A DNA stretch of 64,000 bases. It comes from an uncultured Armatimonadetes bacterium. Its GTDB lineage: Bacteria > Armatimonadota > Hebobacteria > Hebobacterales > Hebobacteraceae. The notes under the pieces are model-generated. The model was not told the DNA's origin. It made no database searches and saw only the letters and a list, made by a program, of their open reading frames with translations. Each line of letters opens with the position of its first letter. The stretch's first letter is position 1. A program made the translations under genes and the position numbers. The DNA is taken from NCBI GenBank assembly GCA_963716175.1, contig OY970296.1, positions 2,208,001 to 2,272,000 on the forward strand. Reading direction: 5' to 3'. Below are positions 10,852 through 31,300 of the stretch, in pieces.

Positions 10852-10925
10852 GGCCCCGTCGTCTAGCGGCCTAGGATGCATGGTTCTCAGCCATGAGATC
10901 GCGGGTTCGAATCCCGCCGGGGCTA
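10852..10925 (+). tRNA. tRNA-Glu(CTC), CCA not encoded
   Basis: Acceptor GGCCCCG/CGGGGCT, anticodon arm CATGG-TTCTCAG-CCATG and GGTTCGAATCC T-arm. Confidence 0.93.
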
Positions 10926-12592
10926 TTGCCACCCTTGATTTTCTGCTCGGCCATTTGCAGTACGGCCTCCAGGTACCCTCGCAGCACCAGCACCGCCCCA
11001 GGTCGCTTCCGCCCCGGCCGCTCCTCCCCGTGAACCTCGATCTTCCCCACCAATCGCTTCAGCGCGCCCTTCACCTGGTCGACCTGGCCGGCCGCCAGCA
11101 TCCGCGGTAGGTCTGACACCATCCGCCGCACCGTTCCTGGCAGCACGCTCAGCGCGGCTGGCAGGTCGGCGCCTTCCGCTGCAGTGGTCTGCTGGCGCAG
11201 ATAATCGCGTCTCGCCTCCGCGGCCCGCATCTCCTCTTCCAGGTCCTCTACCAGAAGGCCCTTCGCTATCGCCTTCACGAGTTGCTGGATCTCCCCCTCG
11301 ACTCGGGCAAGCTCATCTCGAAGCGCCGTTAGCGATGTCTCGTGTTGGACCTGAGCCGCGCGTGCTTGCTTCCACCGCTGCTGCACCTGCTGAACTAACC
11401 TGTCAAGGAAACCGTCAGTGCAGAACAGATCCTCCAGCTCGTGCAGGATCGCGTGCTCTGCCGCGGCCGCATCCACGGTGACCATGCAGTCGCAGACCAC
11501 CTCGCCCCGGTTCTGCCGAGTGCTGCAGGAGTAGGTGTTCGCCCCGCGCAGCACATAGGTGCCGCCGCACTTGCCGCAGATCAGCAGACCACTCAACAGA
11601 CGCCGATTGCGCCAGTGTGCCGCTGACCGTGACCCCCCTCGCGACCGCTCTTGCTGCCGGGCCTTGGCCGCCTCCCACAGCTCCTGGGGCACGATGCGCA
11701 ACTCCGGCGCCTCCTGGACTACCCACTTCTCCTCGGGCAGGTCTCGCCGCACTTGCGTGGCATCTCGATCCGGGTCTCTCGGCCAGGTGCTGCGGTTCCA
11801 GATCAGCCGACCGACGTACTTCTGGTTGTTGAGGATGCCCAGGCCGTGTTTCGGATTACCGAAGATGGCTCCATGCGACCACGTGCGCCGCACCCCTTGG
11901 CGGTCTCGCCATCTGGCGCCGGGCGGCACTACCCCCTCCGCGTTCAGCAGCGCAGCAATCCGGCGCGTGCTCATCCCGTCAGCATACATGCGGAAGATCC
12001 GCCGGATCACCTCGGCCTCGCCCTCGTGGATGACATAGGCGTGCCCGATCTCCAGGCCGGTCCCGGGTGGGTCGCCAGGTTTGTCTGCGTGCACCGGCCT
12101 CGTGCGATAGCCGTAGGGCGCTCCCCCCGCGTGAAGCCCCGCCAGCACTCTCCCCGCGAGGCCCCGGCGACTGCGGTGGGCGTTCGCCTGGCCTTCGGCC
12201 TCGTTCGTGTAGCTCTTCAGCGCGATGATGGCTTTGGCAGCCTCCGGAGACATGACGGAGTCCATTCCGTCCAGCACCGCGACCAGGCCGATATCCCAGA
12301 ATCGGAGTCGCTCGGTGAGAGAGACCAACTCCGAGGATCGCCGCGCCAATCGGGAGAGCTCATCGACGACGATCACGTCGAACTCGCGTGTCTTCGCAGC
12401 CTTGAGCAGCCGCTGATAGCCGGGGCGTCCCTGGGAGACCATCCCCGGGATCTCGCTGTCCGAGTGGACAGCCACCTCCTGCCAGCCCCGGCGCGCGATC
12501 TCCGCGCGGCACTGGCGCACTTGGTCCTCAATCGAGGACGGCCGCTGGAGGTCGCTGCTATACCTTGCGTAGATTGCCGCTCGCATCGTCAT
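10871..12592 (-). CDS. Large serine recombinase (integrase)
   Basis: AIYARYSS, SRLAR, PYGY, LLSGLLICGKCG zinc ribbon and a coiled coil. The 3' end overlaps tRNA-Glu. Confidence 0.95.
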   Translation of the reverse strand: MTMRAAIYARYSSDLQRPSSIEDQVRQCRAEIARRGWQEVAVHSDSEIPGMVSQGRPGYQRLLKAAKTREFDVIVVDELSRLARRSSELVSLTERLRFWDIGLVAVLDGMDSVMSPEAAKAIIALKSYTNEAEGQANAHRSRRGLAGRVLAGLHAGGAPYGYRTRPVHADKPGDPPGTGLEIGHAYVIHEGEAEVIRRIFRMYADGMSTRRIAALLNAEGVVPPGARWRDRQGVRRTWSHGAIFGNPKHGLGILNNQKYVGRLIWNRSTWPRDPDRDATQVRRDLPEEKWVVQEAPELRIVPQELWEAAKARQQERSRGGSRSAAHWRNRRLLSGLLICGKCGGTYVLRGANTYSCSTRQNRGEVVCDCMVTVDAAAAEHAILHELEDLFCTDGFLDRLVQQVQQRWKQARAAQVQHETSLTALRDELARVEGEIQQLVKAIAKGLLVEDLEEEMRAAEARRDYLRQQTTAAEGADLPAALSVLPGTVRRMVSDLPRMLAAGQVDQVKGALKRLVGKIEVHGEERPGRKRPGAVLVLRGYLEAVLQMAEQKIKGGNSPGGIRTRDLMAENHAS

Positions 12593-12830
12593 CTTCGTTT
12601 GGCTCGGCCGCCGCCTGGCTCAGCAACATGGCCACCACCGCCTCCGCTATGTCCTGGACCAATTGATCCATAACGTCCGCGGGAAGTCCAGCGAGAACCT
12701 CCTCGGGTGGGCGCCTATTCGTGCTGATGTTGCGCGCTTTCACTGGTCTTCCCAAAGGAAAACGCCGAGGAGGCTGCTCCCCGGCGCCTTTCGCCATCAC
12801 ACATTGGTGGCCGCAGGCCGCCCGCGTCAT
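12558..12830 (-). CDS. Small hypothetical protein immediately upstream of the integrase
   Basis: Its 3' end overlaps the integrase start. Helical DQLVQDIAEAVVAMLL segment. Confidence 0.4.
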   Translation of the reverse strand: MTRAACGHQCVMAKGAGEQPPRRFPLGRPVKARNISTNRRPPEEVLAGLPADVMDQLVQDIAEAVVAMLLSQAAAEPNEDDDASGNLRKV

Positions 12831-12898
12831 CGCATCATCTCAGGGCTTGCGCTCTGGGCTCACTCCCGCTGAGCGCGTTCCACTGACTGTTTCCTCCG

Positions 12899-13186
12899 TC
12901 ACTCTCGCCTGCTCAGGCCGCCTCGCCCCGCTTTCGCCATTCGTGCCCGCTTCATGTTCTTCACCAACCATCTTCTGGCGGCGGCGTCGATCGTGCCCTT
13001 GACCCCCAGCAGCAGGTGCTCGTCATTCCCGAAGTGGTAATCCATCTCGGGGGTCACGATCATCTGCACCCCGCCCTCCTCGAGCGCGTCGTAGATCTCG
13101 TAGAAGGCGCCTTCCTTCCTGGCGAGTCTGTTTGTGTCGAGCAAATCGCGCACCGCGTCTGCTTCTCGTCGCTTATTTCCCCACAC
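12899..13186 (-). pseudogene. Serine recombinase catalytic-domain fragment
   Basis: DTNRLAR...YDALEEGGV...LLLGVKGTI...KRARMAKAGRG resembles the DRLAR/helix-E region of a resolvase. The N-terminal YxRxS is absent. Confidence 0.5.
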
Positions 13187-13257
13187 TTTCTGGCCCCGGC
13201 CGGTCGGGTGTGCGGGGACCTGCCGACCGGGGCCGAATCTGATCTGGCGCGCCTGGT

Positions 13258-14112
13258 CTAGACCTCGCCTACGGCCTTCGCCAACTCAGACCGAGTGAGC
13301 GTGGTGGTGTAGATGCAACGGATTTCGGTGTTGTCCTCGGGCATTACCTCGCGCCAGAGTTCGCGGTCTCCCTGACTCACCAAGTCCGCCAGCGCGCTTG
13401 CAACGCCTTTGCGGGCCCACTTGCTGTGCCGTTCCTCTGCTGCCAGGAACCCGCCCTCAACCATATCATCGAGGAGCTCGTCCACATCGATATCCCGCAC
13501 CTCATCGAGTAGGGTTTTGCTGATTGACCTTCCTTCAGGGTCCATCCGCCCCGCCAGGATCGCCACCGCTTTGTCGAATGGAACCTTCTCGATTAGCTCC
13601 ACGAATCGAAACACATCACCCCCGGTCTTGCAGGCGGAGCAATACCAGAGGCCGGTCTCGGGGTCAACCTGGAACAGAGAGGGAATGTCCTGCGGACAGA
13701 AGGGGCAGAGGCCGCTCAGGCGTCGCCCGGTCTTGCGCAGCTGGACGTGAGTCGAGATGAGGTCGACGATGTCCGTGCGTTCACGGATCGCCTCCAGGTC
13801 TCGAGCTGAACCGGGTCTGCGATCCGAATCGGCGTCGGTGCAGGGGCAGCTCGAGAGGTGGAGCACTGCCTCCCGCGATCCCACGGCCCGGCCGACTGCC
13901 GCGATAAGGCGCTCCACCCAGGCCTGCGCTGTCTCGACTGTGAGAATGGCCGTGGCGAGCCCACCCCCTTCTATCTCCATCACGACATACACGCCGGCGG
14001 CCTGGTCTGGCGCTCGTGTGTCTCCCGGCCATGGTGAGGCGGGGTCGGCCAGGGGTATGGCCGTCATCCTGATCTCTTCCGTGCGCTCATAGTCCTTCTG
14101 GAACCACGCCAT
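13258..14112 (-). CDS. CHC2 zinc-finger (DnaG ZBD-like) domain protein
   Basis: IRERTDIVDLI...LRKTG...GLCPFC...WYCSACKTGGDVFRFV...FDKAV. No TOPRIM domain. Confidence 0.8.
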   Translation of the reverse strand: MAWFQKDYERTEEIRMTAIPLADPASPWPGDTRAPDQAAGVYVVMEIEGGGLATAILTVETAQAWVERLIAAVGRAVGSREAVLHLSSCPCTDADSDRRPGSARDLEAIRERTDIVDLISTHVQLRKTGRRLSGLCPFCPQDIPSLFQVDPETGLWYCSACKTGGDVFRFVELIEKVPFDKAVAILAGRMDPEGRSISKTLLDEVRDIDVDELLDDMVEGGFLAAEERHSKWARKGVASALADLVSQGDRELWREVMPEDNTEIRCIYTTTLTRSELAKAVGEV

Positions 14113-14537
14113 GCTATCGCTCCTTCCCGTAGGGTCGGGGCCGGCAGCCCCGCCGTATGCTCTCCGTTGACCGTTCCCTCCGCCACTCTCGCCTGCTGAG
14201 GCCGCCTCGCTCGGCCTTCACCGGCGATTCGCGACGACGCCGCGCTCGGTTTAGGGCCAGCTGCAGCGTAGGGCCGGGCAGATACCCATTGGTGTGCAAG
14301 TATTCACCCACATAGTTGATGTCATCGTCGGCACACGACCGACCATAGACACCCAGGTTGAGGTCTGATGCCTTACCGCGAACCACGCGTGGTTCGTACA
14401 CTGATATTGCTCCCGTCGTGCCTCACGAGGAGGCCGCGTCTGCAGATTGACCGCTCCGCGACAAGGCCGGTTATGAGAAGCGAAGGTCCTTCGTATTGGC
14501 GGCGCCCAGACTACGCTCATCGCCTCTGCCTTCGGGC

Positions 14538-14708
14538 CTATCCCTCGTCGGCCCACCTCTCGCGCTGTAGCCGGTTCACTTCGGTTGCCGGGATCGCGCG
14601 CTGCCGTCCGATCCGCACGAATCGGACTCGACCCGACGCCGACCACCGTCTGATCGTTGCCGGGTGCACACAGAGTCGTTCGGCCGCCTGTTTCGTAGAA
14701 AGCAGCAT
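14538..14708 (-). CDS. Excisionase-family HTH protein
   Basis: MLLSTKQAAERLCVHPATIRRWSASG...RIGRQRAIP..EV. Confidence 0.8.
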   Translation of the reverse strand: MLLSTKQAAERLCVHPATIRRWSASGRVRFVRIGRQRAIPATEVNRLQRERWADEG

Positions 14709-14854
14709 CCTACGCCCTTTCTCGGTGCTTGCGTGTAACCGTGCACTGGTTATAGAATTGGGGCGCAAAGCGCGTGTGCGCTTGCGCGCATCAGACATCG
14801 GTCAAGTACCTCGGCGGCAGCGGCGTACCAGTGCCAGATTTCATAAGCACGAAA

Positions 14855-15793
14855 ATGACACCCCTTCCCGCAGCAAGGAAGCCTGACGCGTATCGTAAGG
14901 TGCGGCAGAGCTATGAACGCAGGTACGGTGTGCGCTTCAGCGACGAGCAGTGGCTTGTAGTCGTCGACGAAGCGATGTCCATGTCGGGCCCGTCCACCAG
15001 ATCAGACGCTTATCTGCTACGCCTTCACCAGACGGCTGATTCGTACGCGAAGTTCCTGAGCCTCGGGACCCGCAAAGCGAAGGGCCGTCGCAAGCGGAAA
15101 ACCGTGAAAGGGAAGAAGCGAGGCCCGTATGCTCGACCGCTGCTCGAACGCATCGACTTGGTGCTGCACGTGAACGGGTGCAGGAGTATGGCCAGGCAAC
15201 TGGGGATTCGATGGCTCTGGCGGGACTTCGCAGAGGCACACTGGAAACAGACAGGTAAAGAGGAGAGCCCCGGCGTGCTGAGACGTCGCCACCAATCTGC
15301 GAAGAAGCGGCTCTACACCGCCGTGCCTGTCAACCTACGCTGGCTGCTATGGCCCGAGCACAGGGCCGAGTTGCTGAGACTCCTGGGCGTGCGCAACCTC
15401 AAGGCCTTGGCTGAAGAGCAGGAGAGGCCGACCGAGTGGGTGCGTGGACTTGAGGCGCGGCTTGCTGCGGACCAGGCCCATGTGAAATCAGTTCCTGCTG
15501 CGCGGCGCGAGCGTACCCGTACCCTACTCGAGAAACAGCACGCGCGGGCCATTGCTTTCACCAAGGCCCAGGGTCTCAAGCCCTACCATCTGCCAACTGC
15601 GTGGGAGCCGAAACTCAAGGCTCAGCACGACGCCGACCTTGTTTACCTGAGATCCCTGCCGCCCGTCGACCCCAAGCAGAGGAAGGCAGACCGCCAGGCT
15701 CGGACTGCCAGAGCCGCTGCCGCCCGCAAGCGCTTGAAGAAGCAGCTGTGCGAAGAAGACCTCGCCTATCTGAGATCCATCTCTCGAGAGTAG
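14855..15793 (+). CDS. Basic hypothetical protein, divergent from the excisionase
   Basis: Long K/R-rich ORF with an internal repeat DLVYLRSL/DLAYLRSI. Start uncertain. Confidence 0.5.
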   Translation: MTPLPAARKPDAYRKVRQSYERRYGVRFSDEQWLVVVDEAMSMSGPSTRSDAYLLRLHQTADSYAKFLSLGTRKAKGRRKRKTVKGKKRGPYARPLLERIDLVLHVNGCRSMARQLGIRWLWRDFAEAHWKQTGKEESPGVLRRRHQSAKKRLYTAVPVNLRWLLWPEHRAELLRLLGVRNLKALAEEQERPTEWVRGLEARLAADQAHVKSVPAARRERTRTLLEKQHARAIAFTKAQGLKPYHLPTAWEPKLKAQHDADLVYLRSLPPVDPKQRKADRQARTARAAAARKRLKKQLCEEDLAYLRSISRE

Positions 15794-16001
15794 ATCGCCC
15801 TACGGCGCAGGGTCTACTTGGCCGAGCGAGCCACCTCCCGATTGCGCCCGCCCGGCTGGCTGGAAGTCTTGCCGAACCCCGTGGATCACCCTTCCATCTT
15901 CCTCCCGAATGGCCGCGCGAGCACCAAGCTCTCGTTCTGCTGTACCATCAGCGGTTCGATAGCCACCACACCTTGCACAAGCCAGCGGGCGGTGGATCAG
16001 T

Positions 16002-16030
16002 TTGACGAGGAGGCCACCGCGTGGTAATCT
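16002..16030 (+). promoter_or_regulatory. Sigma70-type promoter
   Basis: TTGACG-17 bp-TAATCT with an extended TG. Confidence 0.5.
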
Positions 16031-16117
16031 TCCGCTGGCGAGGGGGGATGGCTAAGGTGGGGTGTCTAGGGGTGAACAGAGATACCCACGCCTCTCGACA
16101 AGCTCACCGTCGGTCAT

Positions 16118-16552
16118 GTGGGGCAGTTCATCGCAGCCGAGAAGACTGCTGACCTCGCTTCTGCGATCCGTCGGGGACGCGGAGGCAGGTGGTGTCCACG
16201 CGTTCCGATACTTGGCGCGAGAGTTGCTCAGTACCGCGCGGAGTTACTCCTTGTTCTTGATCCCGGCGATGTCTGCGAGAGTTCATGCAGGATTGTGTTC
16301 GCGGGAACTATAGAACGTGTTCGGGCTGTGAATTGGAAGGAAAGCTATCCCAGTGCTCTTGACCCCTCGGTATTCTGCTCCGGCTGGCATGAGCATAGGT
16401 GGGACCCGGTCAATCGCGACCGGAATCATTATCCCGTTCCCGATCTCCAGGAGCCCAGGTCTTTCCGTGAGGTTTTGCAGTGGGCACAACTACAATGGGG
16501 CCTCGAGATCAGCGGGTTATACTTGATACCCCAGTCACTTATGAAAGGCTGA
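16118..16552 (+). CDS. Hypothetical protein (DUF6978-like)
   Basis: RVRAVNW...GWHEHRW motif, located directly upstream of a DUF1828-like gene. Confidence 0.5.
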   Translation: MGQFIAAEKTADLASAIRRGRGGRWCPRVPILGARVAQYRAELLLVLDPGDVCESSCRIVFAGTIERVRAVNWKESYPSALDPSVFCSGWHEHRWDPVNRDRNHYPVPDLQEPRSFREVLQWAQLQWGLEISGLYLIPQSLMKG

Positions 16553-16554
16553 AA

Positions 16555-17400
16555 ATGGATATCATGGAGGAAGCTAAGGGTCTGTGTGAGGACCTACGCA
16601 GAGTGTACGAGAATCGCGTGCGGGTTGTTGTCCGGCCAGACGGCAAGCACGTCGTGACCGTCCCTCACTCTACGCTGGAAGGAGGCGATACTTCGCTGTT
16701 TGTGGATGCCGTGGACGGCTTACTGTTCCTGCACGATAACGCGCGAACTGCTGTGTTCCTGGAATCTCTTGGTGTTGATCCGCGGGCCAGCGGCCGTAGA
16801 ACCCATATTGAGACCTTGGCCCGCGAGCGTGGTTGCGAATACAGAGTCGGACGGCTTCAAGTCCTCGTGCGAGCAACCAAGGATCGAGCTTCGTCTGCGG
16901 CGGGCCTTGCAGACCTGATCAAGACCGTGTCCGACCTAGGGCTCCAGTCCAGGCCCAAGCCGATTCAAGATCGGGCACTGGTGAGTCGAGTCAGGAAGAG
17001 GTTGTCCGAATGGTATCCTCCGACCACTCGGACTGCGGTGCATGCTCCTTATCGGGTACGTGGAGAAGTGGCGGAGCATACAGTGGAGTTCGCTGTCGCA
17101 AGAGGTGGGCGTTGGTGCGCCGTGAAGCCCGTTCAGGGCAGACAAATGGTAATGCAGGCCGCGAGCTGGCTGGGTACATGGCGGGATATCTGGTTAGGGC
17201 GCTCATCTGAGGCGAACGGAAATGGCCTCGTGGGAGCTGTCAGTATCTATCCGACCGCGGATGTGTCAACGACAGAAGTTGATGTCGTTAAAGACATCTT
17301 AGGAAGGTTTGGCAGCGAACACATTCCTGTTGCGGAGGAAAGCTCGCAGGGCGTACACGATGCCATTGAATCGGTGCTGCGGGTCGGCATGCTACAGTGA
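16555..17400 (+). CDS. DUF1828-like protein with a possible degenerate restriction-endonuclease fold
   Basis: VTVPH..LEGGDTSLFV...LFLHDNART and C-terminal VRGEVAEHTVEFAV. Confidence 0.55.
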   Translation: MDIMEEAKGLCEDLRRVYENRVRVVVRPDGKHVVTVPHSTLEGGDTSLFVDAVDGLLFLHDNARTAVFLESLGVDPRASGRRTHIETLARERGCEYRVGRLQVLVRATKDRASSAAGLADLIKTVSDLGLQSRPKPIQDRALVSRVRKRLSEWYPPTTRTAVHAPYRVRGEVAEHTVEFAVARGGRWCAVKPVQGRQMVMQAASWLGTWRDIWLGRSSEANGNGLVGAVSIYPTADVSTTEVDVVKDILGRFGSEHIPVAEESSQGVHDAIESVLRVGMLQ

Positions 17401-17439
17401 ATGCTGGACGGCCGATGGTGTCTGTGGTATCGTACTGTT

Positions 17440-17694
17440 ATGCCTAAACGCTCAAGCAAGCACAAGCAGGGACCTGAGGACGTGAACGAGATCGCCTTCC
17501 GGGTGACGCAGAGGGCGGCGGGGGAAGCACCGCAGGAAGCGTCAAGTGGGAAGAACCCCGCGGCAGTCGCACTCGGCAAGCTCGGCGGCGCGAAGGGCGG
17601 CAAGGCGCGGGCCGCTAGACTCAGTGCGGATCAAAGGAGAAGTATTGCAGTGAGAGCCGCGCGCATTCGCTGGGGAGAGTCTCGTGAAGCCTAA
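17440..17694 (+). CDS. Small basic protein of the 'KNPAAVALG-GG-KGG' type
   Basis: PEDVNEIA...KNPAAVALGKLGGAKGGKARAARLS..QRRSIA..AA.IRW. A TGGTATCGT -10 box sits just before the ATG (leaderless). Confidence 0.75.
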   Translation: MPKRSSKHKQGPEDVNEIAFRVTQRAAGEAPQEASSGKNPAAVALGKLGGAKGGKARAARLSADQRRSIAVRAARIRWGESREA

Positions 17695-17930
17695 CCCTGC
17701 GACTGCTTGATTGCAGCCAACTTGTCCTTGTCTATAAGGTTGTTTGCTTTTCCTTGCATGATAATGTAAGGCTGCATGAGCGGGTTCATGAACCGAAATC
17801 TGTAGCGGTAAGCGGTCCCGGTCTTTTGTAACACAGGTCCTCTCTCACTCCCGCAGAAGTCATTCAGGTGGCGCGAGAAGCTGGCAATTCCATAGCTTTT
17901 CGCCATGACAGTACTTGACCTTGCTTCCCA
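17691..17930 (-). pseudogene. C-terminal fragment of an AAA/ORC-type ATPase
   Basis: FSRHLNDFC...GPVLQKTG..YRFRFMNPLMQPY. No upstream portion present. Confidence 0.4.
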
Positions 17931-18020
17931 GGCGATTCGCCCGTACACTTGGCGCGATCTTGCTCCCGCCTGTGTATCTTGAGGTAGTCATTCCAGGCCA
18001 AAGCGATAACGACTACGGCG

Positions 18021-18836
18021 ATGATGCACATACTGACCACGAAGGCGGCAACCGTTATGTCAATGACTCGACCATCAAGCTTGTCGCCCATTGATACTGC
18101 GGCAAGGGCGCAGACCGTCTGGTTTGTCGTGGAGACTGTCCTTCTCCTGGCGACAGTCGTGGTGTCCGTGTTGGTGTGGCGGTCCACCAACCGATACCAG
18201 GATCTTGTGAGGCGCGAGGCTGATGCCCGGATTGCAGAAGCTACCCTTGGAGCGGCCCAAGCGAACGAAAGGGCCAAGGCCCTAGAGGCCAGCAACCTCA
18301 TCCTGCGCAAGGACGTGAATGAGGCAAGCGCCAAAGTCGCCAGCGCCCAACGGGACGCCGCAGATGCGCAGAAAGCTGCTGCCGAAGCAATAACACGCCA
18401 GCAGAGGGTCGAGATCTTGCTGGCCAGACAGCAGGAGCGCGCAGCAAGAGCAGAAGCGGAACTGGCGAAACTACAGCCTCGCTTCCTCTCTAGTAGGCAG
18501 CGCGGCCTCTTGCTAGAGGCCTTGACGGCCTCCCGCAAAGGCCCGGTAGAAGTCTTCTGCCTCGTCAATGATGCCGACGGGGAGCAGTACGCAACACAGA
18601 TCAAGGAGGCGCTACTAACATCCGGATGGCCGACCGCTGGCGTCACTATGGCGAGGCTGATACCCGGACCGCCTCCAGGTCTCTCCATCGCCGTACGTGA
18701 CAGGGCGTCTCTGCCGCCCCACGCCCAGAGTCTGCTGCACGCGTTGGCCACCGCAGGACTTCGTACGAACTTGGACGAGGAGCCTGATGTACCCGCAGGA
18801 GTGGTTAGAGTGATCGTTGGCCACAAGCCGCAATGA
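18021..18836 (+). CDS. Single-pass membrane coiled-coil hypothetical protein
   Basis: One TM segment, an A/E/Q-rich coiled coil, and C-terminal PRFLS...VIVGHKP. Confidence 0.6.
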   Translation: MMHILTTKAATVMSMTRPSSLSPIDTAARAQTVWFVVETVLLLATVVVSVLVWRSTNRYQDLVRREADARIAEATLGAAQANERAKALEASNLILRKDVNEASAKVASAQRDAADAQKAAAEAITRQQRVEILLARQQERAARAEAELAKLQPRFLSSRQRGLLLEALTASRKGPVEVFCLVNDADGEQYATQIKEALLTSGWPTAGVTMARLIPGPPPGLSIAVRDRASLPPHAQSLLHALATAGLRTNLDEEPDVPAGVVRVIVGHKPQ

Positions 18837-18900
18837 GCGCGTGTCTCTATTCTCAGCGCCTTCCCCCTCATCTTAGGACACCACCAGCCAGCGAGGGGCC

Positions 18901-18928
18901 TTTACGGCCGCGCGTTTCGTGGTATACT
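18901..18928 (+). promoter_or_regulatory. Promoter of the ParB-MTase-terminase operon
   Basis: TTTACG...CGTGG-TATACT. Confidence 0.55.
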
Positions 18929-19075
18929 CTGAGCGGACAGTAAGGCCCCTGGCCCTGGTGGGTTTGGGGTGAAGAGCTGGCGGATATCAGCCGGCGTCTG
19001 ATGCGAGATAGGAAGGGACGCCTTCCAAATCTGGCACCAGGGGCCGGCTTCGTCTTTCTGCCAGGAGATATCGAA

Positions 19076-19708
19076 ATGGACCAGTCGCCAGGACGCGCAA
19101 CGACCGAGACCGCCAGAGAAGTGGAAGTCGTCTATGCCTCCGGCATTCCTGTGCATTGCGCGCATGATCAGATCGCCGATGTCGATGTACTCGTCCCCAA
19201 TCCGCGCAACCCCAACCGTCACTCGGACGAACAGATTCGCCTGCTGGCGAAGATCATCAAGCACCAAGGCTGGCGGGCCCCAATCACGGTCTCGAACCGC
19301 TCCGGCTTCATCGTCCGCGGCCACGGGCGCCTGACAGCGGCCAAGCTGCTGGGTGTTGACCTCGTGCCCGTGGACCGCCAGGACTACGCCACCGAAGCGG
19401 AGGAGTGGGCCGATCTCATCGCCGATAACCGACTCTCGGAGCTCAACGAGATGGACGGCGCCAGCCTCACGGAGTTGCTCCGGGAACTCGATGCCGGGAT
19501 GCTGGCGGTCCTGGGCGCGGACATGGAGTTGACCGGCTTCACGGAGGCCGCTCTGGCTGAGGTGATGAGCCAGCTCCAGCCGGAGGAGGAGCTGGAGGAG
19601 GTGGAGGCCCCGGAGCCGCCTGCCCAGCCGGTAACGCGGCCGGGCGATCTCTGGCTGCTGGGTCGGGTCGTGCAGTGTCCTCGTTGCGGGAGGCTGACTG
19701 ATGTCTGA
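19076..19708 (+). CDS. ParB/Srx N-terminal domain protein ending in a CxxC motif
   Basis: PNPRNPN.H, GWRAPI, IVRGHGRL, ADNRL, then PVTRPGDLWLLGR followed by VVQCPRCG. Confidence 0.88.
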   Translation: MDQSPGRATTETAREVEVVYASGIPVHCAHDQIADVDVLVPNPRNPNRHSDEQIRLLAKIIKHQGWRAPITVSNRSGFIVRGHGRLTAAKLLGVDLVPVDRQDYATEAEEWADLIADNRLSELNEMDGASLTELLRELDAGMLAVLGADMELTGFTEAALAEVMSQLQPEEELEEVEAPEPPAQPVTRPGDLWLLGRVVQCPRCGRLTDV

Positions 19709-20453
19709 ATGCGTCTGTCAGCACTGCCGACATCGATTCGAAGCGGAGCCGAAGGTGAAGCATCGCGTCCTCTGCGGCGATGCCACCAGTGACGCGGATC
19801 TCGCGACGCTGACTTCCGGCGAAGCCTGTCAGTTGCTGACGACAGATCCGCCATACAACGTGGGCATGGACTACCGCGAGGAGACGGACGATGACAAGAG
19901 CGGGGAGTCCTATCGGGAGTTCACACAGCAGTGGTTTGAGGCGACGCGTGCCCTCACCGAAAGGCAGATCGTGACCCCCGGCTGCAACAACCTGGCGATG
20001 TGGCTCCGGCTCTACGGCCCCTACCACGTGGCGCCGTGGACGAAGACCAACGCCATGACCAACGGCAAGGTCTCCCGTTTCTGGTGCTGGGAGCCGATCC
20101 TGTTCTTCGGGGAGAAGTGGCCACGAACACGGCCCAACGACGTTTTCGACTTCCCGGCTGGCACCCACAAAGATACCGGAGGGCATCCCTGCCCCAAGCC
20201 TCTGAGGATGTGGGCCGATCTGCTGACCCACTATGCAGCTGAGGGGGGAACCGTCCTGGAGCCATTCCTGGGCAGCGGCACGACCTTGGTAGCGGCCGAG
20301 CAGGTGGGCCGGAGGTGCATGGGCCTGGACATCTCGCCGGCCTATGTGGATGTCGCACTGATACGCTGGATGAAGCTCACCACCAAGCAGCCGATCCTTG
20401 CGGCCACCGGCCAGACCTTCGAGGAGGTGCACGATGAGCGAAGCAGTTCCTGA
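19701..20453 (+). CDS. N4/N6 DNA methyltransferase (beta class), copy 1
   Basis: HRVLCGD, TDPPYN, HPCPKP, VLEPFLGSGTT, with N-terminal CVCQHC. Confidence 0.9.
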   Translation: MSECVCQHCRHRFEAEPKVKHRVLCGDATSDADLATLTSGEACQLLTTDPPYNVGMDYREETDDDKSGESYREFTQQWFEATRALTERQIVTPGCNNLAMWLRLYGPYHVAPWTKTNAMTNGKVSRFWCWEPILFFGEKWPRTRPNDVFDFPAGTHKDTGGHPCPKPLRMWADLLTHYAAEGGTVLEPFLGSGTTLVAAEQVGRRCMGLDISPAYVDVALIRWMKLTTKQPILAATGQTFEEVHDERSSS

Positions 20454-21312
20454 GCCGGCAGGCCGGGATGGCGGCCCGCAGGGCCCAGCCATTGCGTGCA
20501 CCTGCGCCCACTGTGGCAAGCGGTTCGAGGCCGTCCCGATGCCACAGCATCGCATCATGTGCGGAGACTCCACCGATCCGGCCGCGGTCGCGGCGCTGAT
20601 GGCGGGCCAGCAGGCGAGGCTGCTTGCCAGCGACCCGCCCTATGGCGTGCGCTATGACGGCAACGCGCACCGGCGGGAACACAGCGGGGGCAGAGTCTAC
20701 GATCCCATCGCCAACGACGATCTCGACGGACCTGCGCTGGAGGCATTCCTGACGGCCGCCTTCCGCGCGGCCTTGCCCCACCTCTCCGACGATGCCGCCT
20801 GGTATGTCTGGCACGCCTCCAGCACGCGTCCCCACTTCCTGGCGGCGCTAGCCTCTGTGGGGGTGGAAGTGCACCAGGAGATCGTCTGGGTCAAGGAGGG
20901 CTTCCAGTTCAGCCGCTCCGATTACCACTGGCAGCACGAACCCTGCCTGTATGGCTGGCGCGAGGGTCACGTCTTCCTGGGGGAGCGCAATCAGTCGACG
21001 GTGTGGCCGATCGCCCGGCAGAGCGAGCATAGGCATCCGACCTCAAAGCCGACGGAACTCTGGCGCATCCCGATCCGCAATCACTTGCCACCCGGCGAGA
21101 TCGTGCTGGATCTGTTCCTCGGCAGCGGAACCGCGATCATCGCCGCCGAGCAGTTGGAACGGCGCGGCTTCGCAATGGAGATCGGCGCCGCCTACGTGGA
21201 CGTGTCCGTGCTCCGCTGGCAGGCGCTGACTGGCAAGGAGGCCATCCTGGAGGCGACGGGGCAGAGCTTCTCCGAGGCGGCCGCGGCGCGGGGGGTGGAG
21301 ATCGAGTGCTGA
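20434..21312 (+). CDS. N4/N6 DNA methyltransferase (beta class), copy 2
   Basis: HRIMCGDST, SDPPYG, HPTSKP, VLDLFLGSGT, with N-terminal CTCAHC. GAGGAGG RBS. Confidence 0.9.
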   Translation: MSEAVPEPAGRDGGPQGPAIACTCAHCGKRFEAVPMPQHRIMCGDSTDPAAVAALMAGQQARLLASDPPYGVRYDGNAHRREHSGGRVYDPIANDDLDGPALEAFLTAAFRAALPHLSDDAAWYVWHASSTRPHFLAALASVGVEVHQEIVWVKEGFQFSRSDYHWQHEPCLYGWREGHVFLGERNQSTVWPIARQSEHRHPTSKPTELWRIPIRNHLPPGEIVLDLFLGSGTAIIAAEQLERRGFAMEIGAAYVDVSVLRWQALTGKEAILEATGQSFSEAAAARGVEIEC

Positions 21313-21313
21313 C

Positions 21314-21748
21314 ATGGCCGATGAGGTTCAGGAACAACCGAAGAGCAACGTGGGCGGCATTACCGGCAAGGGGTTCACTCCCGGCCGCTCCGGCAACCCC
21401 GGGGGACGGCCTCGGGGCAGCAAGAGCCTGCGGAATCTGCTGATCGAGGCGCTGCGCAAGAAGGCCAAGGACGGCAAGGGCGGTGAGAAGGAGTTCTACG
21501 AGCTGCTCACCGAGTCCATCGTGGTGAACGCGGCCAAGGGCAATGCGGCCCTGGTGAAGCTCATCTTCGACTACCACGAGGGACCGCCGCCGCAGAAGCA
21601 TGAGCTGACCGAGTTCGTCTATCAGGCGACGGAGCTGCGTGAGACCGTCCGCAAGGTGGCGGAACTGATGCGGGACTTCGTCCCGCCGGAGCGATGGGAT
21701 GAGCTCGCCGCTCGTCTCGACGAGATCGACAGAGCCAGCGCCGCGTAG
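21314..21748 (+). CDS. Terminase small subunit-like protein (DUF5681 motif)
   Basis: GFTPGRSGNPGGRP, directly upstream of the large subunit. Confidence 0.75.
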   Translation: MADEVQEQPKSNVGGITGKGFTPGRSGNPGGRPRGSKSLRNLLIEALRKKAKDGKGGEKEFYELLTESIVVNAAKGNAALVKLIFDYHEGPPPQKHELTEFVYQATELRETVRKVAELMRDFVPPERWDELAARLDEIDRASAA

Positions 21749-23195
21749 CCTCCTGGGCGTGCTCGCCCGGGAGTTCAGGGCCCAGGCATCCGAGGCCTCC
21801 TTCGCACGCTACCGGGATGACCCGGCGCGGTTCGTACTGGACATCTTCGACTGGCGAGAGGGCGAGGGGCCGACGGCCTACCAGCGGGAGGCGCTGCGCG
21901 AGTTCCCGCGGCGGCGCCGAGTCTGCCTGCGGTCCCCACACTCAGCAGGCAAGACGGCCCTGGCGGCATGGATCGTGCTTTGGTTCGCGTTATCCAGGGA
22001 GCGCATGGAAGGCGATTGGAAGGCCGTGTTGACCGCCAGCGCATGGCGGCAACTATCGCACTACCTGATGCCCGAGATCCGCAAGTGGGTCGGACGCCTG
22101 GATTGGGCGAAGGTCGGCCGGCGGCCATTCGACCAGCGCACCGAACTGCTGGCACTCAACCTGAAGCTCTCCCGGGGTGAGGCCTTCGCGGTCGCCTCGG
22201 ACAAGCCGGAGCTGATCGAGGGGGCCCACGCCGACCGGCTGCTCTACATCTTCGATGAGGCCAAGGCCATCCCATCTGCCACCTGGGACGCGGCGGAAGG
22301 CGCGCTGGCGTCGGGCGACTGCCTCGCGCTGGCGATCTCTACGCCGAGCGAGCCGCAGGGGCGATTCTACGAGATTCAATCGCGGAAGCCGGGCACCGAG
22401 GATTGGTGGGTGCGCCACGTCACGCGGGACGAGTGTCTGGAGTCCGGGCGCATGGACCCGGAATGGGCGGAGCAAAGGAAGGTGCAATGGGGAGAGGGCT
22501 CGGCCGTCTACCAGAACCGCGTGCTGGGCGAGTTCGCGTCATTGGAGGAGGATGGTGTGATTCCCCTGGCGTGGGTCGAGGCGGCGAACGAGAAATGGCG
22601 GGCGCTGGAGGAATCGGGGGAGTGGGGAGGGTTCAGCTGCTGCGGGGTGGACGTGGCAAGAGGGGGTGAGGACCGGACGGTCATCGCCCTCCGGTACGGC
22701 GACGCCATCCGGGAGCTTCGGCGGTCCTCGAAGCGGGACACGATGGAGACCACGGGCGCGGTGGCGGGGATCCTCCAGGCACACGGGGGCGAGGCTATCG
22801 TGGACGTGATCGGGATCGGCGCCGGCGTGGTGGACCGGCTCAAGGAGCAGAGGAAGGCGGTGAGGGCATTCAACGCCTCCGAGCACACCGATGCGAAGGA
22901 CCGATCGGGCGAGCTGGGCTTCGTGAACAAGCGCAGCGCGGCCTGGTGGCACCTGCGGGAACTACTCGACCTGGCCTCCGACAGGCAGATCGCCCTTCCG
23001 CCAGACGACCTGCTGACCGGGGACCTGACGGCGCCGCATTGGCATCCCATGTCCGCGGGAAAGATCCAGGTCGAGGCCAAAGACGATATCAAGAAGCGCA
23101 TTGGCCGCTCCACCGACGACGGCGACGCGGTGGTGATGGCGTTCTGGAAAGAGCCAGCAGTAGTGTATCCGAAGTTCAGGATCGCGAGGGCGTGA
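21699..23195 (+). CDS. Phage terminase large subunit
   Basis: Walker A SPHSAGKT, Walker B YIFDEA, ISTP, RVLGEF, nuclease GVDVARGGED and STDDGDA. Confidence 0.88.
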   Translation: MSSPLVSTRSTEPAPRSLLGVLAREFRAQASEASFARYRDDPARFVLDIFDWREGEGPTAYQREALREFPRRRRVCLRSPHSAGKTALAAWIVLWFALSRERMEGDWKAVLTASAWRQLSHYLMPEIRKWVGRLDWAKVGRRPFDQRTELLALNLKLSRGEAFAVASDKPELIEGAHADRLLYIFDEAKAIPSATWDAAEGALASGDCLALAISTPSEPQGRFYEIQSRKPGTEDWWVRHVTRDECLESGRMDPEWAEQRKVQWGEGSAVYQNRVLGEFASLEEDGVIPLAWVEAANEKWRALEESGEWGGFSCCGVDVARGGEDRTVIALRYGDAIRELRRSSKRDTMETTGAVAGILQAHGGEAIVDVIGIGAGVVDRLKEQRKAVRAFNASEHTDAKDRSGELGFVNKRSAAWWHLRELLDLASDRQIALPPDDLLTGDLTAPHWHPMSAGKIQVEAKDDIKKRIGRSTDDGDAVVMAFWKEPAVVYPKFRIARA

Positions 23196-24793: not shown

Positions 24794-25176
24794 TGCCAGA
24801 ATAGCTTCGGCGGCCTGGGGGCGGCTCCTCCCCCTGTGTGGAACCATGGGCCGACAGCGAACAGCCGCGGGCTCGCGGTGCTTGCCATGCACAGGCTGCT
24901 GCGGCAGCCCGGTTATCTCGATCTTCCGCTCTCCTCCTGGCGCGAATACGCGTCCGATAGTGCCCCTTACTGGACGCAGACCCGGGGCGCCGCCACAGCG
25001 CAGATCACAGTGTGCTCCGCGATGGCCGCACCCGCCGGCCGGCCATCGAAGCGGATGCCCCGGCGAGTCAGGATGGTCCAGAAGGACCAGAGGACGCGGG
25101 GTGTGAACTTCAGGAATCATGGCGGCCTCTCCAGGCCGTCGCGGCGGAGCGAGCCCGGACAGAGGAGGATCGCCAC

Positions 25177-26112
25177 GTGGACTACACTACCCTTGGACGC
25201 ACGGGCCTGCGCGTCAGTGTCATGGGGCTCGGGTGCGGAGGACACAGTCGGCTCGGCCAGAGCTACGGCAGGAGCGAAGAGGAGTCTGCGGAGGTCGTGC
25301 AGGCCGCGCTCGCCCATGGGATCACGTTCTTCGACACCGCCGAGGCCTACGGCACGGAGAGTATCCTCGGCACGGGCCTGAGTCGGGAGCGGCGCGAGAG
25401 CGTGGTTATCTCGACCAAGATGACCTCATCCGTGGGCGACCGTCTGGTGCCTCGCGAGCAGGTGGGTTCCGGGCTGGAAGGGAGTCTGCGCCGGCTGCGC
25501 ACTGACTATGTGGATGTCTACCTCATCCACGGCCTGAGGGCCAAGCACTACCAGGAAGCCGTCAGTGAACTTGTCCCAGAACTGGTGAAGCTGCGAGACC
25601 AGGGCAAGCTAAGGTTCCTGGGAGTGACGGAGGCGTTTGCGTCCGATCCTGGACACAACATGCTGCGACGGGCGGTCCAGGACGACTGCTGGGACGTGAT
25701 CATGGTCGGGTTCAACATCCTGAATCAGGCCGCCCGTGAGCGAGTGCTGCCCGCCTGTCGGGAGAAAGCGATTGGCGTGCTGAACATGTTCGCGGTGAGG
25801 CGGGCGCTCGGCGATTGGGCGTGCCTGGAAGACGTCCTCGCCGACCTGGGGAAGAGAGAACTGGTGGACGGGCGAGCTGTCAAGGACACTCTCGACTCCC
25901 TAATCCGCGAGGGCGGAGCAACCAGTTTGCAGGACGCCGCCTATCGGTTCTGCCGATACGAGCCAGGCATCCACATCGTCCTGTCTGGAACCGGGAACCT
26001 GGGGCATTTGAAGGAGAACGTGGACTCCCTCGCGCGGCCTCCTTTGCCAGCAGAACATGCGGCGCGCCTCCGGGGGCTGCTGGTGAGGGTGGATGACATC
26101 TCGGGGAACTAG
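25177..26112 (+). CDS. Aldo/keto reductase
   Basis: LGRTGLRVS.MGLG, FDTAEAYG, ISTK, SLRRLRTDYVDVYLIH. Confidence 0.92.
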   Translation: MDYTTLGRTGLRVSVMGLGCGGHSRLGQSYGRSEEESAEVVQAALAHGITFFDTAEAYGTESILGTGLSRERRESVVISTKMTSSVGDRLVPREQVGSGLEGSLRRLRTDYVDVYLIHGLRAKHYQEAVSELVPELVKLRDQGKLRFLGVTEAFASDPGHNMLRRAVQDDCWDVIMVGFNILNQAARERVLPACREKAIGVLNMFAVRRALGDWACLEDVLADLGKRELVDGRAVKDTLDSLIREGGATSLQDAAYRFCRYEPGIHIVLSGTGNLGHLKENVDSLARPPLPAEHAARLRGLLVRVDDISGN

Positions 26113-28337: not shown

Positions 28338-31300
28338 ATGACCGATCTCCTGGCCGAACTCAGAAAGCCAGCGGATGCCGTGGTTGATCCGCCTGTCCAG
28401 CCACGTCTACAGGCGCTACCGTTCCAGCAGCTGACTTGGCAGAACTTCGAGCGTCTATGCCTTCGTCTTGCTAGCGCAGAGTCTGACGTCAGGTCGGCTC
28501 GCCCCTATGGAGGGCCGGGTCAGTCCCAAGAGGGGATCGATTTCGTCGCCTCCCCCAAGGACGCCCCTGGAAAGGTGACCTGGGTCTACCAGTGCAAGCG
28601 GTGGGGACACGTCACCGCTCCCGATCTCGCTGGATGGGTGAACGTGTTCCTCGAATCCTGGCGGGGCTCTTTGCCGACAAGATTCACCGTCTGCGTGAGC
28701 CAGGCGCTTACCGCGCCTGACGTAATCAGAGAGATAGCCGCCCAAGAGCGCAGGCTTGCGGAAGGCCAGGTTGAGTTCGACGTGTGGGATGGCGAGCATC
28801 TCAACCAAAGGCTGAAGCAGCGCTCTGACTTGGTGGACGACTTCTTCGGTCGCGCTTGGGTCGAGGCCTTCAACGGGAGTGACGCTGCCTCCGCTCTCTC
28901 GGCCCGGCTCGCGGGCGCAGACGCACTTCAGTTGCGCCGTAGGCTACTGGCGCTGTATGAGCGCCTCTTCGGTCAGCACGATCCCGGTATTGCGCCAGTG
29001 TCGGCGCGCGCCCTCCCGCTGCGCTCCCGCTATGTCTGGCCGGACGTTCTTGTCGAGCGCGAGGTCGCGACCTCTGCCGCCGATGGAACCGGCGCTCTGA
29101 CAGCGGGGGCACGGGATGCTGGTGGCGACCTACTGGCCGCTCGTGAGAGGAGGGAAGGCGCCGCGCGGCCGTCGCGTTCTCAGGCTGTCCGAATTCCCGT
29201 GGCGCAGTGGCTGGCACGCCAGCATAGAGCCGTGGTGTTGGGTGACCTCGGCACGGGGAAGAGTTCGCTGCTTCGAAGCGTGGCGCTGGAGATCCTGTCT
29301 GCGGATGCCAAGGCTCCTGAGCTTTCCGGTGCGTGGGACGAGTTTGTGCCGATCTGGGTGCCGTTCGCCGGCTGGACTAAGGCCGTCCTTGAGGCACAGC
29401 CAGGGGTCAGCCTAGTTGACTATGTGACGACCTGGTTGCACCGGCATGGCGCCGATGACATTGCTGACATCGTCAGCCGGTTGGTCGGTGATGGACGGTT
29501 ACTGCTCCTGGTTGACGGCCTCGATGAGCGCAGGAGCGACGAGGCCGGCATGATAGCACTCGATCTGCTGGAGGCATTCCTCGCGAACCACGATGTCCCA
29601 GTCATCATGACGAGCAGGCCGGTAGGCTATGAGATGGTCGCTCGGGCAGAGTCAGAGTGGGCTCATGCTCACCTTGCTCCGCTATCTGAAGAGCAACAGC
29701 GTCACTTCGCACTCTTCTGGTTTCGCTGGCTCAGTGACTCCGGCAAGGATCTGAAGGCGCAGACTCTGGCAGACCGAGAGGCGGACTCCCTACTCGCGGA
29801 GGTCACCTCTAGGTCGGAGCTGTCAGCCCTAGCAGAGGTGCCGCTCACGCTCGGAATGCTGATAGAGCTGCGACGGCGCGGGGTGACGATTCCGCAGAGG
29901 CGCTTTGAGGTCTACAGCAAGCTGGTTGACTGCCTACTCGAGGAGCAGCCCGCACATCGCCGCCGCGCGGCTGGTCAGATCTCGGACGGTGACCTCGATC
30001 TGACGGATCGTCGGAACCTGCTGGCCTGCCTGGCACTCGAATTCCAGACACCGAGTGGTGCGGGCACTATGGCGGAGCAGCAGTGTGTGGAGTTGATTGC
30101 TGCTCGGCTCAGTGATCTGAACCATGTATGGGGCTACGACCGCGCTCGAGCGCGGCAAGTGGCGCGTGCGTTGATCGAAGAGGCGGTGCGAGAGGCTGGT
30201 ATCCTCACGAAACAGCCGCCGGACGGAATCGCCTTCTCTCACCTTGGTCTGCAGCACTGGCTGGCAGCGGTTGGCCTTTCGCTGCGACGTGCGGAGGAGC
30301 AGTCGCGATGCATCTCTCAACACTACCTGGAGCCCCAATGGCGAGAGGTCGTATTGTCCTTTCTGGAGATCCGATGCAGCACCGAGGACGGGCGCCAGTT
30401 CGCCGTCAAGCTCCTTGACGATCTGAAGGCCCGAACTACATCAACCTTCAGTCGGTGCCAGCTCGACATACTGCTGGCGGATGCTGTGTTCGCTGGCCTG
30501 GGGCTTCCAGCACTGTATGCCCGTACTGAGGCTCAGCGCCTGCTAGATCTAGTGCAGAAGTCGCCTTTCCCAGACCAGGCAGCCGACCTTGCCCAGGCCG
30601 CAGTCTCAGGTCTCAACAGCAGAGCGGTCAAAGAGGTCGTGGCGCGCAGCGCGTACAGGTGGTTCCCTGCTTGGAGCGAGCTCAGCCGGGCGTCGATCGT
30701 TGAGCGGCTCGGCAAGTGGGACGCGGCACCGGATGTCCGGGAGACTCTCATCGGGGCGTTGTACGACGAGGACTCGGGATGTCGCGCTGTGGCAGGGCAA
30801 TCCATCAGTCGCGTCTACGGCGGTGACGAATCTCTTGGTGGCGAGTTGCTGCAGATCGCGTGCCACTCGGTGGCGCCCGGCCCGCGGGAGGGAGCACTGC
30901 TGGCGCTGGCATTCGGGTGGCCTGATAGGCCCGAACTACCTGACCTGCTTGCGCAGAGCACACAGGATGGGGATCAGGGCGTCCGCCTGTCCGCCATCGA
31001 GGCCAGAATCCATCTCTCGCTTCACACAGACGAGGATCGACAGGTCCTGTGGTCACTTGTCAAAGAGAATACTGCCCTCGATTACTGGCGGCGGGATGAA
31101 GTGGGACCTGCGCTGCTTCTGGGCTGGCCGTCGAGTGACGATCTGCGGAGAGAGTGCTTCGACGTGCTCCCACGCGCCGCAGGCTTCCTTCACGGTGACC
31201 TGGCGGAGCAGGCCGTCTTCGTGCTCCTAACCGGATGGCCTGGCGACGATGAGATAGCGGCGCGCTTCGCTCACTGGTTGTCGTCAGACGAGCGCGACCC

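Follow-up and report, generated by a model that had tools for sequence, protein, structure and literature searches.

Phages and prophages commonly carry DNA methyltransferases (MTases) of the N6_N4 family fused to a ParB domain, such as Bce_0392 of Bacillus cereus (PMC12704722, PMC3592412, PMC5512222). In the available text of these papers, the function given for the ParB domain of the B. cereus enzyme is non-specific nicking (PMC3592412, PMC5512222), and the ParB fold more widely is reported to bind nucleoside triphosphates (NTPs; PMC12704722); the role of the domain in the fusions is unsettled. We analyzed a stretch of 64,000 nucleotides (nt) of contig OY970296.1, from an uncultured Armatimonadetes bacterium (this whole stretch is called the window), in which positions 19,076 to 21,312 hold what is, as we read the genes, a phage ParB-DNA methyltransferase in pieces: one ParB subunit that is shared, and two catalytic subunits, here named MTase1 and MTase2. 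As far as the accessible descriptions of the fused enzymes go, they have the same domains in the same order, contain the same GDLWxLG/HRLLCGD hairpin, likewise lie beside terminase genes, and are homologous to the present proteins at 50-70% identity. Here, however, the genes are separate, two MTase genes come after a single ParB gene, and a module of four cysteines (Cys4) occupies the turn of the hairpin; neither a split form nor a cysteine module is mentioned in the parts of that literature that are available (PMC12704722, PMC3592412, PMC5512222). The split variant is genuine, conserved, and widespread, with a distribution that takes in viral contigs and prophages of Planctomycetota, Lentisphaerota, Acidobacteriota, and others. 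We consider it probable (about 0.7) that two or three MTases share one ParB, to which they dock by a metal-knuckle module assembled in trans and by strand complementation.

Individual parts of this arrangement have relatives elsewhere. Two-subunit DNA methyltransferases are known, e.g., M.AquI and M.EcoHK31I, in which function is divided between two overlapping genes; unlike here, it is the catalytic C5-MTase fold itself that is split, and there is no ParB, no metal module, and no choice of catalytic subunits. Trm112 docks by adding a beta-strand to the sheet of its MTase, as the ParB tail does in the model described below. It is a small zinc-binding hub that activates several methyltransferases (PMC3152332, PMC4678810) and is in that respect like one ParB serving several class I MTases, but according to the available text its zinc lies within one chain, it is unrelated to ParB, and the MTases that it serves act on RNA and protein in eukaryotes and archaea. 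Two cysteines per chain sharing one metal are found in the Rad50 zinc hook and the CD4/CD8alpha-Lck zinc clasp (PMC5093744, PMC9569753, PMC12198760); the corresponding site at the present locus is one that we infer, and, in the accounts available, neither the hook nor the clasp derives from a broken single-chain module, uses strand complementation, or is linked to DNA methylation. A precedent for a ParB-like partner acting in trans is offered by the phage 5-methylpyrimidine dioxygenases, which need such a protein from an adjacent gene (bioRxiv 10.1101/2025.08.14.668559), although the enzyme family is a different one, the contact proposed is between C-termini, and no shared metal module is described in the accessible part of that report. 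By analogy, the system would unite a Cys4 site shared between proteins with a hub of the Trm112 kind that serves several MTases, and it is made from parts of the known ParB/Srx and beta-class N6/N4 families. A literature search, with most subscription journals and supplements outside its coverage, turned up neither this split nor a split zinc ribbon.

All features of the locus given here lie on the plus strand. The ParB-like gene (19076..19708, with ATG at 19076 and TGA at 19706-19708) encodes 210 amino acids plus the stop and is preceded by the Shine-Dalgarno sequence AGGAG at 19063-19067. Its product ends in GDLWLLGRVVQCPRCGRLTDV, the last part of the longer stretch PVTRPGDLWLLGRVVQCPRCGRLTDV; within this tail, GDLWLLG (residues 190-196; 19643..19663) is the first strand of the hairpin that reads GDLWLLGxHRLLCGD in fused enzymes, and the first knuckle, CPRCG (C201, C204, and G205; 19676..19690), begins, as always, four residues past it, with the end of ParB another five residues on. 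Across an alignment of 26 ParBs of the window type (type A below), G190, G196, C201, C204, and G205 are all invariant. The MTase1 gene (19701..20453), encoding a beta-class N6/N4 DNA methyltransferase of 250 amino acids, starts with an ATG at 19701 that overlaps the ParB stop within ATGTCTGA, i.e., by 8 nt and in a different frame; an in-frame TGA at 19695-19697 means that no longer N-terminus is possible. Its Shine-Dalgarno sequence, GGGAGG (19688..19693), is made of the ParB codons for G205-R206, and the conserved glycine after the knuckle and the ribosome site thus constrain each other. MTase1 begins MSECVCQHCRHRFEAEPKVKHRVLCGD, of which residues 4-17 are a head tag, CVCQHCRHRFEAEP (19710..19751), with the second knuckle at C6 and C9, and the second strand of the shared hairpin, HRVLCGD (residues 21-27; 19761..19781), follows. 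In an alignment of 42 tagged MTases, C9 is invariant and C6 nearly so. The catalytic motifs are TDPPYN (residues 48-53, with DPPY at 19845-19856) and FLGSGTT (residues 189-195), and near the C-terminus lies the strand PILAATGQTF (residues 231-240; 20391..20420), which stands beside the ParB strand in the complex model.

MTase2 (20434..21312; ATG at 20434), a second N6/N4 methyltransferase, of 292 amino acids, overlaps the end of MTase1 by 20 nt and has its own Shine-Dalgarno sequence, GAGGAGG, at 20421-20427; in all three genes this signal is strong and is spaced 6-8 nt 5' of the start. A leader of 21 residues is followed by CTCAHCGKRFEAVPMPQHRIMCGDS, in which the head tag CTCAHCGKRFEAVP (residues 22-35; 20497..20538) is followed by HRIMCGD (20548-20568), so that both MTase heads read CxCxHC(G/R)xRFEAxP directly ahead of HRxxCGD. 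MTase2 carries SDPPYG and FLGSGTA, and its AILEATGQSF corresponds to PILAATGQTF of MTase1; all three docking elements (tag, HRIMCGD, and AILEATGQSF) are retained in MTase2, which is 39% (alignment A1) or 34% (alignment A3) identical to MTase1. A second gene like MTase2 is also present in loci L081, L097, L115, L131, and L145. A reading of the window made beforehand from its letters and open reading frames (ORFs), referred to below as the sequence-only reading, had proposed that the chain breaks exactly at the hairpin, leaving a CxxC tail on ParB and two tagged MTases each with its own ribosome-binding site, and all of this can be read directly from the DNA. As to the MTase2 leader, several relatives are without it (e.g., those of L097 and L131 start MSE(L/M)VECECAHCG), and contigs from the public runs X2 and X5 skip 62-107 nt in the leader region 20440-20503.

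The family membership of the catalytic subunits is straightforward: PF01555 (N6_N4_Mtase) matched MTase1 with 81.7 bits and MTase2 with 67.1 bits, against a cut-off of 26.7, and both show the beta-class order, with motif IV, (D/S)PPY, ahead of motif I, FxGxG. The Pfam model ParB_N (PF02195) scored ParB at 22.4 bits (E 1.3e-4), under its cut-off of 26.3, but a phmmer search of 1.8 billion representatives matched it to fused ParB-MTases at E values from 1e-60 to 1e-42, some of them annotated as PF02195. In the conserved GxxR motif, G82 is invariant and R85 nearly invariant in the type A alignment, and we regard the subunit, on these matches, as clearly homologous to ParB/Srx N-terminal-domain proteins. 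It does not belong to the single-chain ParB-MTase architecture, because the defining feature, GDxWxLGxHRxxCGD in one polypeptide, is divided: both hairpin strands are present but on different chains (stop at 19706, start at 19701). The Cys4 module consists, in single-chain forms, of two cysteine pairs, CxxC (or CxC), about 10-20 residues apart; both pairs are present in the window, CPRCG and CQHC, on two chains. That the usual form is one chain, as had been assumed, was borne out among the best 80 of 595 viral loci centered on the MTase: 69 read GDxWxLGxHRxxCGD in one ORF, as fusions without junction cysteines, 6 were split, and 5 did not match the regular expression.

Since the spacing GDLWxLG-x4-CxxCG is constant in split loci, it was used as a degenerate DNA pattern to scan viral contigs for ParB tails. 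Eighty of the 103 matching stretches were fetched and MTase heads were sought within 1.5 kilobases downstream; once 21 chance matches, such as a recombinase, Gly/Cys-rich repeats, and frames that were very short, had been removed, the true ParB tails numbered 59 and comprised 54 distinct combinations, with no locus mixing types. Thirty-six loci are of type A, the window type, in which ParB carries one knuckle and stops 4-11 residues later. All 35 of these with downstream DNA have an MTase-like head, 24 have two, and 58 of the 59 heads contain C-x(1-2)-C within the 24 residues before HRxxCGD. In the 22 type B loci both knuckles are on ParB, as CxxCG-x11-17-CxCG followed by a stop; MTase heads are present in all 22 (two heads in 12, three in 1), start (M/V)GxLxLKSxHRLLCGD, and never have a cysteine pair (0/36). 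The remaining tail, L112, which is protein P0272, belongs to a fusion with the entire module, GDLWLLGAREVCQHCGEDSNGGKCDSCGKEYTPERLHRLLCGD, where CQHCG-x7-CDSCG places four cysteines in one stretch of 20 residues. Tail and head were complementary in 58 of the 59 true ParB tails, and by this count of motifs the recurrence is far beyond chance.

Viral contigs searched in the opposite direction, from a degenerate pattern of the MTase head, yielded 30 distinct head sets, and a one-knuckle ParB tail was found upstream in all 29 that are informative, the other having too little upstream DNA. The tail adjoins the first head in 25 sets and lies about 760-1120 nt upstream, behind another MTase, in 4. 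Eleven of these tails end in CxxC followed by H, R, K, E, N, or Q rather than G and were thus beyond the reach of the first scan. Among bacterial genomes taken one per species, 13 distinct sets were found (3 without upstream DNA and 1 a chance match), and all 9 informative ones have the tail, although one of these, GDLCLLG, was recognized by eye; the carriers include Planctomycetota, Lentisphaerales (Lentisphaerota), Solibacteraceae (Acidobacteriota), and others. Loci combining ParB-CxxC and a stop with Cys-tagged MTases, whose existence elsewhere had been left to be looked for, are therefore numerous, and usually contain two tagged MTases. Four loci have an HNH endonuclease gene between ParB and the tagged MTase (L100:853-1452, minus strand; L107:1618-2247; L109:1616-2245; and L152:967-1479, minus strand). 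Those of L100, L107, and L109, which start MxCxxCxKxF, were considered as clients of ParB other than MTases and rejected, being HNH endonucleases with two N-terminal cysteine pairs of their own; such a pair of CxxC motifs is present in three of the four intervening genes.

The distribution of the cysteines also bears on whether the two halves meet at all. The MTases could be autonomous, with an intrachain N-terminal site completed by a histidine or by Cys25, while the ParB knuckle served, for example, in a homodimer like the Rad50 hook. Cys25 of HRxxCGD is indeed nearly invariant, some heads have an extra histidine or cysteine (e.g., MICNCGHEF...C), and dimerization of identical chains through one CxxC apiece is known from the available accounts of the Rad50 hook (PMC5093744, PMC9569753). 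However, Cys25 is conserved equally in fusions that have no other cysteine there, the cysteine pairs of type B stand side by side on ParB with none on the heads, those of P0272 are all together, and in every informative viral or genome case the tagged heads had a one-knuckle ParB upstream. We regard autonomous MTases as unlikely, even though one control of the complex model gave them some comfort by reaching 0.71.

The closest homologues of MTase1 form 15 clusters (P0002-P0016) at 68-85% identity, mostly of about 249 amino acids, of which 11 were fetched (P0003, P0005, P0006, and P0014 were left out). All ten that are full-length start with the tag, typically MSECTCQHCGHRFEAEP; the 11th, P0011 (232 amino acids), begins after the position of the tag. 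Fused ParB-MTases, with the sequence GDLWLLGEHRLLCGD, are confined to identities of 66-70% and below, and the close homologues are thus split alike rather than single ORFs, an outcome that would have told against the sequence-only reading had it been the reverse. The gap-free junction, with the 8-nt overlap, is common to seven distinct sequences (the window and six from viral contigs), across which C201 and C204 of ParB and C6 and C25 of MTase1 vary synonymously between TGC and TGT. An indel at 19700-19708, which would likewise have undone the proposal, is absent from contigs of public sequencing runs that span these positions, the table of inserted or deleted letters being empty: record 1 of X1 (19622-20117), which may derive from the source sample, has zero differences, and record 17 of X3 (19652-19960) has four substitutions and no gap. 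Together with the tagged homologues, these observations exclude assembly error and recent decay. It is true that the element looks truncated past its terminase gene and that one relative (L009/L190) is frameshifted, as might be expected of a misassembly or a decaying pseudogene in a dead prophage, but the same architecture recurs at 25-35% identity in unrelated phages, and we give that explanation almost no credence.

L009 and L190, which are the same viral contig, are themselves a decayed type A copy, in which ParB changes frame ahead of its tail, and a further frame change, in the first tagged MTase, separates its tag from its body. Among the proteins, P0296 (325 amino acids) has the C-terminal end of one MTase joined to the next tagged head, GAGMICKCCGREF...HRVLCGD, and may reflect read-through from one tandem MTase into another or an artefact of gene calling.

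A fused protein could still be made by programmed frameshifting or by reinitiation across the ParB stop, for which the overlap of two frames offers an obvious place; in L123, moreover, the MTase start is in frame and 6 nt past the ParB stop. The usable window is, however, limited to 8 nt (19698-19705) and contains no slippery heptamer, the geometry of the junction differs by locus (-8, -5, -1, and +4 to +7 nt), and each gene has a strong Shine-Dalgarno sequence. The argument raised beforehand from the second MTase copy also holds, as the starts of second and third tagged MTases, at 500-1100 nt from ParB, are out of reach of such a fusion. Production of a fused chain therefore seems highly improbable.

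P0272 is the only fusion bearing the module among its 120 listed relatives, and its MTase domain is 63-67% identical to tagged stand-alone MTases versus 53-57% to fusions that lack the module. Type B, with all four cysteines on ParB and no cysteine pair on the MTases, and the fused P0272 indicate that the four cysteines are one unit; wherever the chain is cut, tail and head always sum to one full module plus the two strands of the hairpin. Type B had not been anticipated by the sequence-only reading, and it strengthens the idea of half-sites put forward there. Unsplit enzymes hardly ever contain the module, and this argues for a module that makes up for the covalent connection lost in the split. 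The history was approached with a quick, unrooted tree of the ParB domain, comprising 97 rows (28 type A, 15 type B, 53 plain fusions picked, like the one fusion with the module, from the best phmmer or relative matches of ParB and P0272). The tree calls for at least 11 changes for type A (7 of them forced by well-supported branches), 4 for type B, and 10 for plain fusions. Judging by this tree, split and module evidently go together repeatedly, on many branches, and types A and B interconvert among closely related ParBs. We lean, with rather more than even confidence, toward a portable plug and socket, in which a Cys4 module in the hairpin permits a cut of the gene before or after the second knuckle, making ParB a hub for two or three interchangeable MTase cassettes. 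As the module occurs almost only in split genes and on many ParB branches, it would then be a natural, repeatedly used assembly tag for split proteins, with a 2+2 interprotein metal site.

For a structural view, MTase1 (an alignment of 42 rows) was modeled with ParB residues 171-210 (25 rows) and a zinc ion, which was unscored. The complex scored 0.91 (0.90, 0.92, and 0.91 in the three runs), at a mark that is reached by 58 of 80 solved complexes and by 2 of 110 mismatched pairs; among three controls the highest score was 0.71, and the one in which MTase1 was replaced had 0.59. The runs share at least 98% of contacts, and the partner had a predicted local distance difference test (pLDDT) value of at least 90. 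Contacts of lowest error place ParB residues 191-195 (DLWLL) antiparallel to MTase1 residues 21-25 (HRVLC) and beside residues 232-234 (ILA of PILAATGQTF); MTase1 residues 4-9, 11, and 13 also touch the ParB tail. The beta-strand complementation anticipated by the sequence-only reading is thus predicted, with the mark passed if barely above one control. Among solved structures searched by sequence, none spans the ParB-MTase junction, and the result is therefore unlikely to reflect memory of a similar complex, although it also lacks a template for comparison. In an AlphaFold2 (AF2) model of the type B ParB of L101 (15 rows, mean pLDDT 75.6), C165 and C168 lie at the turn between strands 162-164 and 171-173.

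The strand pairs raise the question of whether the cysteines are needed for docking. Strand complementation alone might suffice, with the cysteines binding another metal (iron, as in rubredoxin), forming disulfides, or acting as a redox switch instead of a structural zinc clasp: the contacts of lowest error are the strand pairs and not the knuckles, type B systems would dock without any cysteine on the MTase, and CxxCG plus CPxCG is also the rubredoxin pattern. Both cysteines of each knuckle are, however, invariant or nearly so and are kept under synonymous change, and the near absence of the module from unsplit enzymes speaks for a part in joining the chains; docking by strands alone is, in our judgment, quite improbable.

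The assembly in trans that we favor would work as follows. The Cys4 module, a putative metal site, sits in the turn of the GDLWxLG-x-HRLLCGD hairpin, and the chain is broken between its two knuckles, leaving strand 1 and knuckle 1 (CPRCG) on ParB; each MTase begins with knuckle 2 (CxxC), a short strand, and strand 2 (HRxxCGD). The three genes would be translated from one coupled operon. The GDLWLL strand of the ParB tail would then insert between the N-terminal (HRVLC) and C-terminal (PILAA) strands of the MTase, and the two knuckles would close on one metal ion, with two cysteines from each chain; zinc is probable, and iron possible since the cysteine patterns are shared with rubredoxin. One ParB species could carry either MTase, or both in one particle if ParB dimerizes, and the ParB domain would supply a DNA- or NTP-dependent function as in the fusions. 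The phage genome would be methylated at two kinds of site around the time of packaging, presumably against host restriction, and a single ParB for two or three MTases would save coding space and leave the MTase cassettes exchangeable. All computational checks that the sequence-only reading had proposed favored it, and the comparative case for assembly in trans through half metal-sites is strong. Support for the proposed 2+2 interprotein site comes from the complex model and from homology to single-chain forms, and the docking geometry is that suggested by the model; metal binding, its stoichiometry, activity dependent on ParB, different targets for the MTases, and the anti-restriction role are matters that we infer.

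Several observations weigh against this assembly. The complex score exceeds its mark by the minimum margin, an unrelated control of 54 residues scored 0.71, a test of this kind is usually passed by the two parts of a split gene in any case, and the custom alignments and the zinc ion riding along differ from the conditions under which the score was calibrated. The AF2 model of L101 puts C183 and C185 after a short helix (174-179), in a tail with pLDDT 75-80, rather than in a second hairpin; we therefore speak of a Cys4 knuckle module, a classical zinc ribbon not being established. The census loci are related to one another, the ParB tree is a quick one with long-branch warnings, and the MTase head of the type A locus L100, the sole exception, has a single cysteine. 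The sequence-only reading had given both MTases a matching CxCxHC tag; the tags do match, but the first cysteine of CxC is not conserved among MTase homologues. The tag of MTase2 is preceded by a Pro/Gly-rich leader of 21 residues (20440-20503) that its relatives lack, and, finally, the prophage appears truncated after the terminase gene, so that this particular copy may have fallen out of use.

Should the 2+2 metal site prove real, a widespread family would join a very short list of interprotein Cys4 sites, in a class of interface with only a few studied examples, and would exemplify a gene split without loss of assembly. Phages would obtain several methylation specificities at the cost of one ParB domain, and the tail and head would constitute a small natural tag for heterodimerization, of about 20 plus 20 residues. 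Separate proteins also make the role of the ParB domain directly testable.

The split genes had been placed next to the terminase, and the neighboring genes agree with this. On the plus strand, MTase2 is followed by a DUF5681 gene (21314..21748; Pfam PF18932, 47.6 bits), which from its position may take the place of the small terminase subunit, and then by a gene resembling the large terminase subunit (21699..23195), for which the Pfam match is weak (Terminase_6N, E 0.0068, below cut-off); the same gene order is found in viral contig L001. Upstream, on the minus strand, are a primase-like gene with a CHC2 zinc finger (13258-14112) and a serine recombinase (10871-12592), and the element so delimited, 10871-23195, looks like a short or truncated prophage: the annotation of the window shows neither a portal nor a capsid gene beyond the terminase, which is followed by a minus-strand ORF and, beyond the element, by an aldo-keto reductase (25012-26112). 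Farther along the window, an ORF of 1626 amino acids (28338-33218) has a NACHT/STAND NTPase domain and HEAT-like repeats and may be a defence or signalling ATPase. Elsewhere on the same chromosome of 4.56 megabases there are four more ParB-like matches (L185-L188, at 815145-815699 on the minus strand, 2845916-2846416, 2879364-2879864, and 2963611-2964114); they lie in open frames of 448-460 amino acids and are probably ordinary fused ParB-MTases in other prophages.

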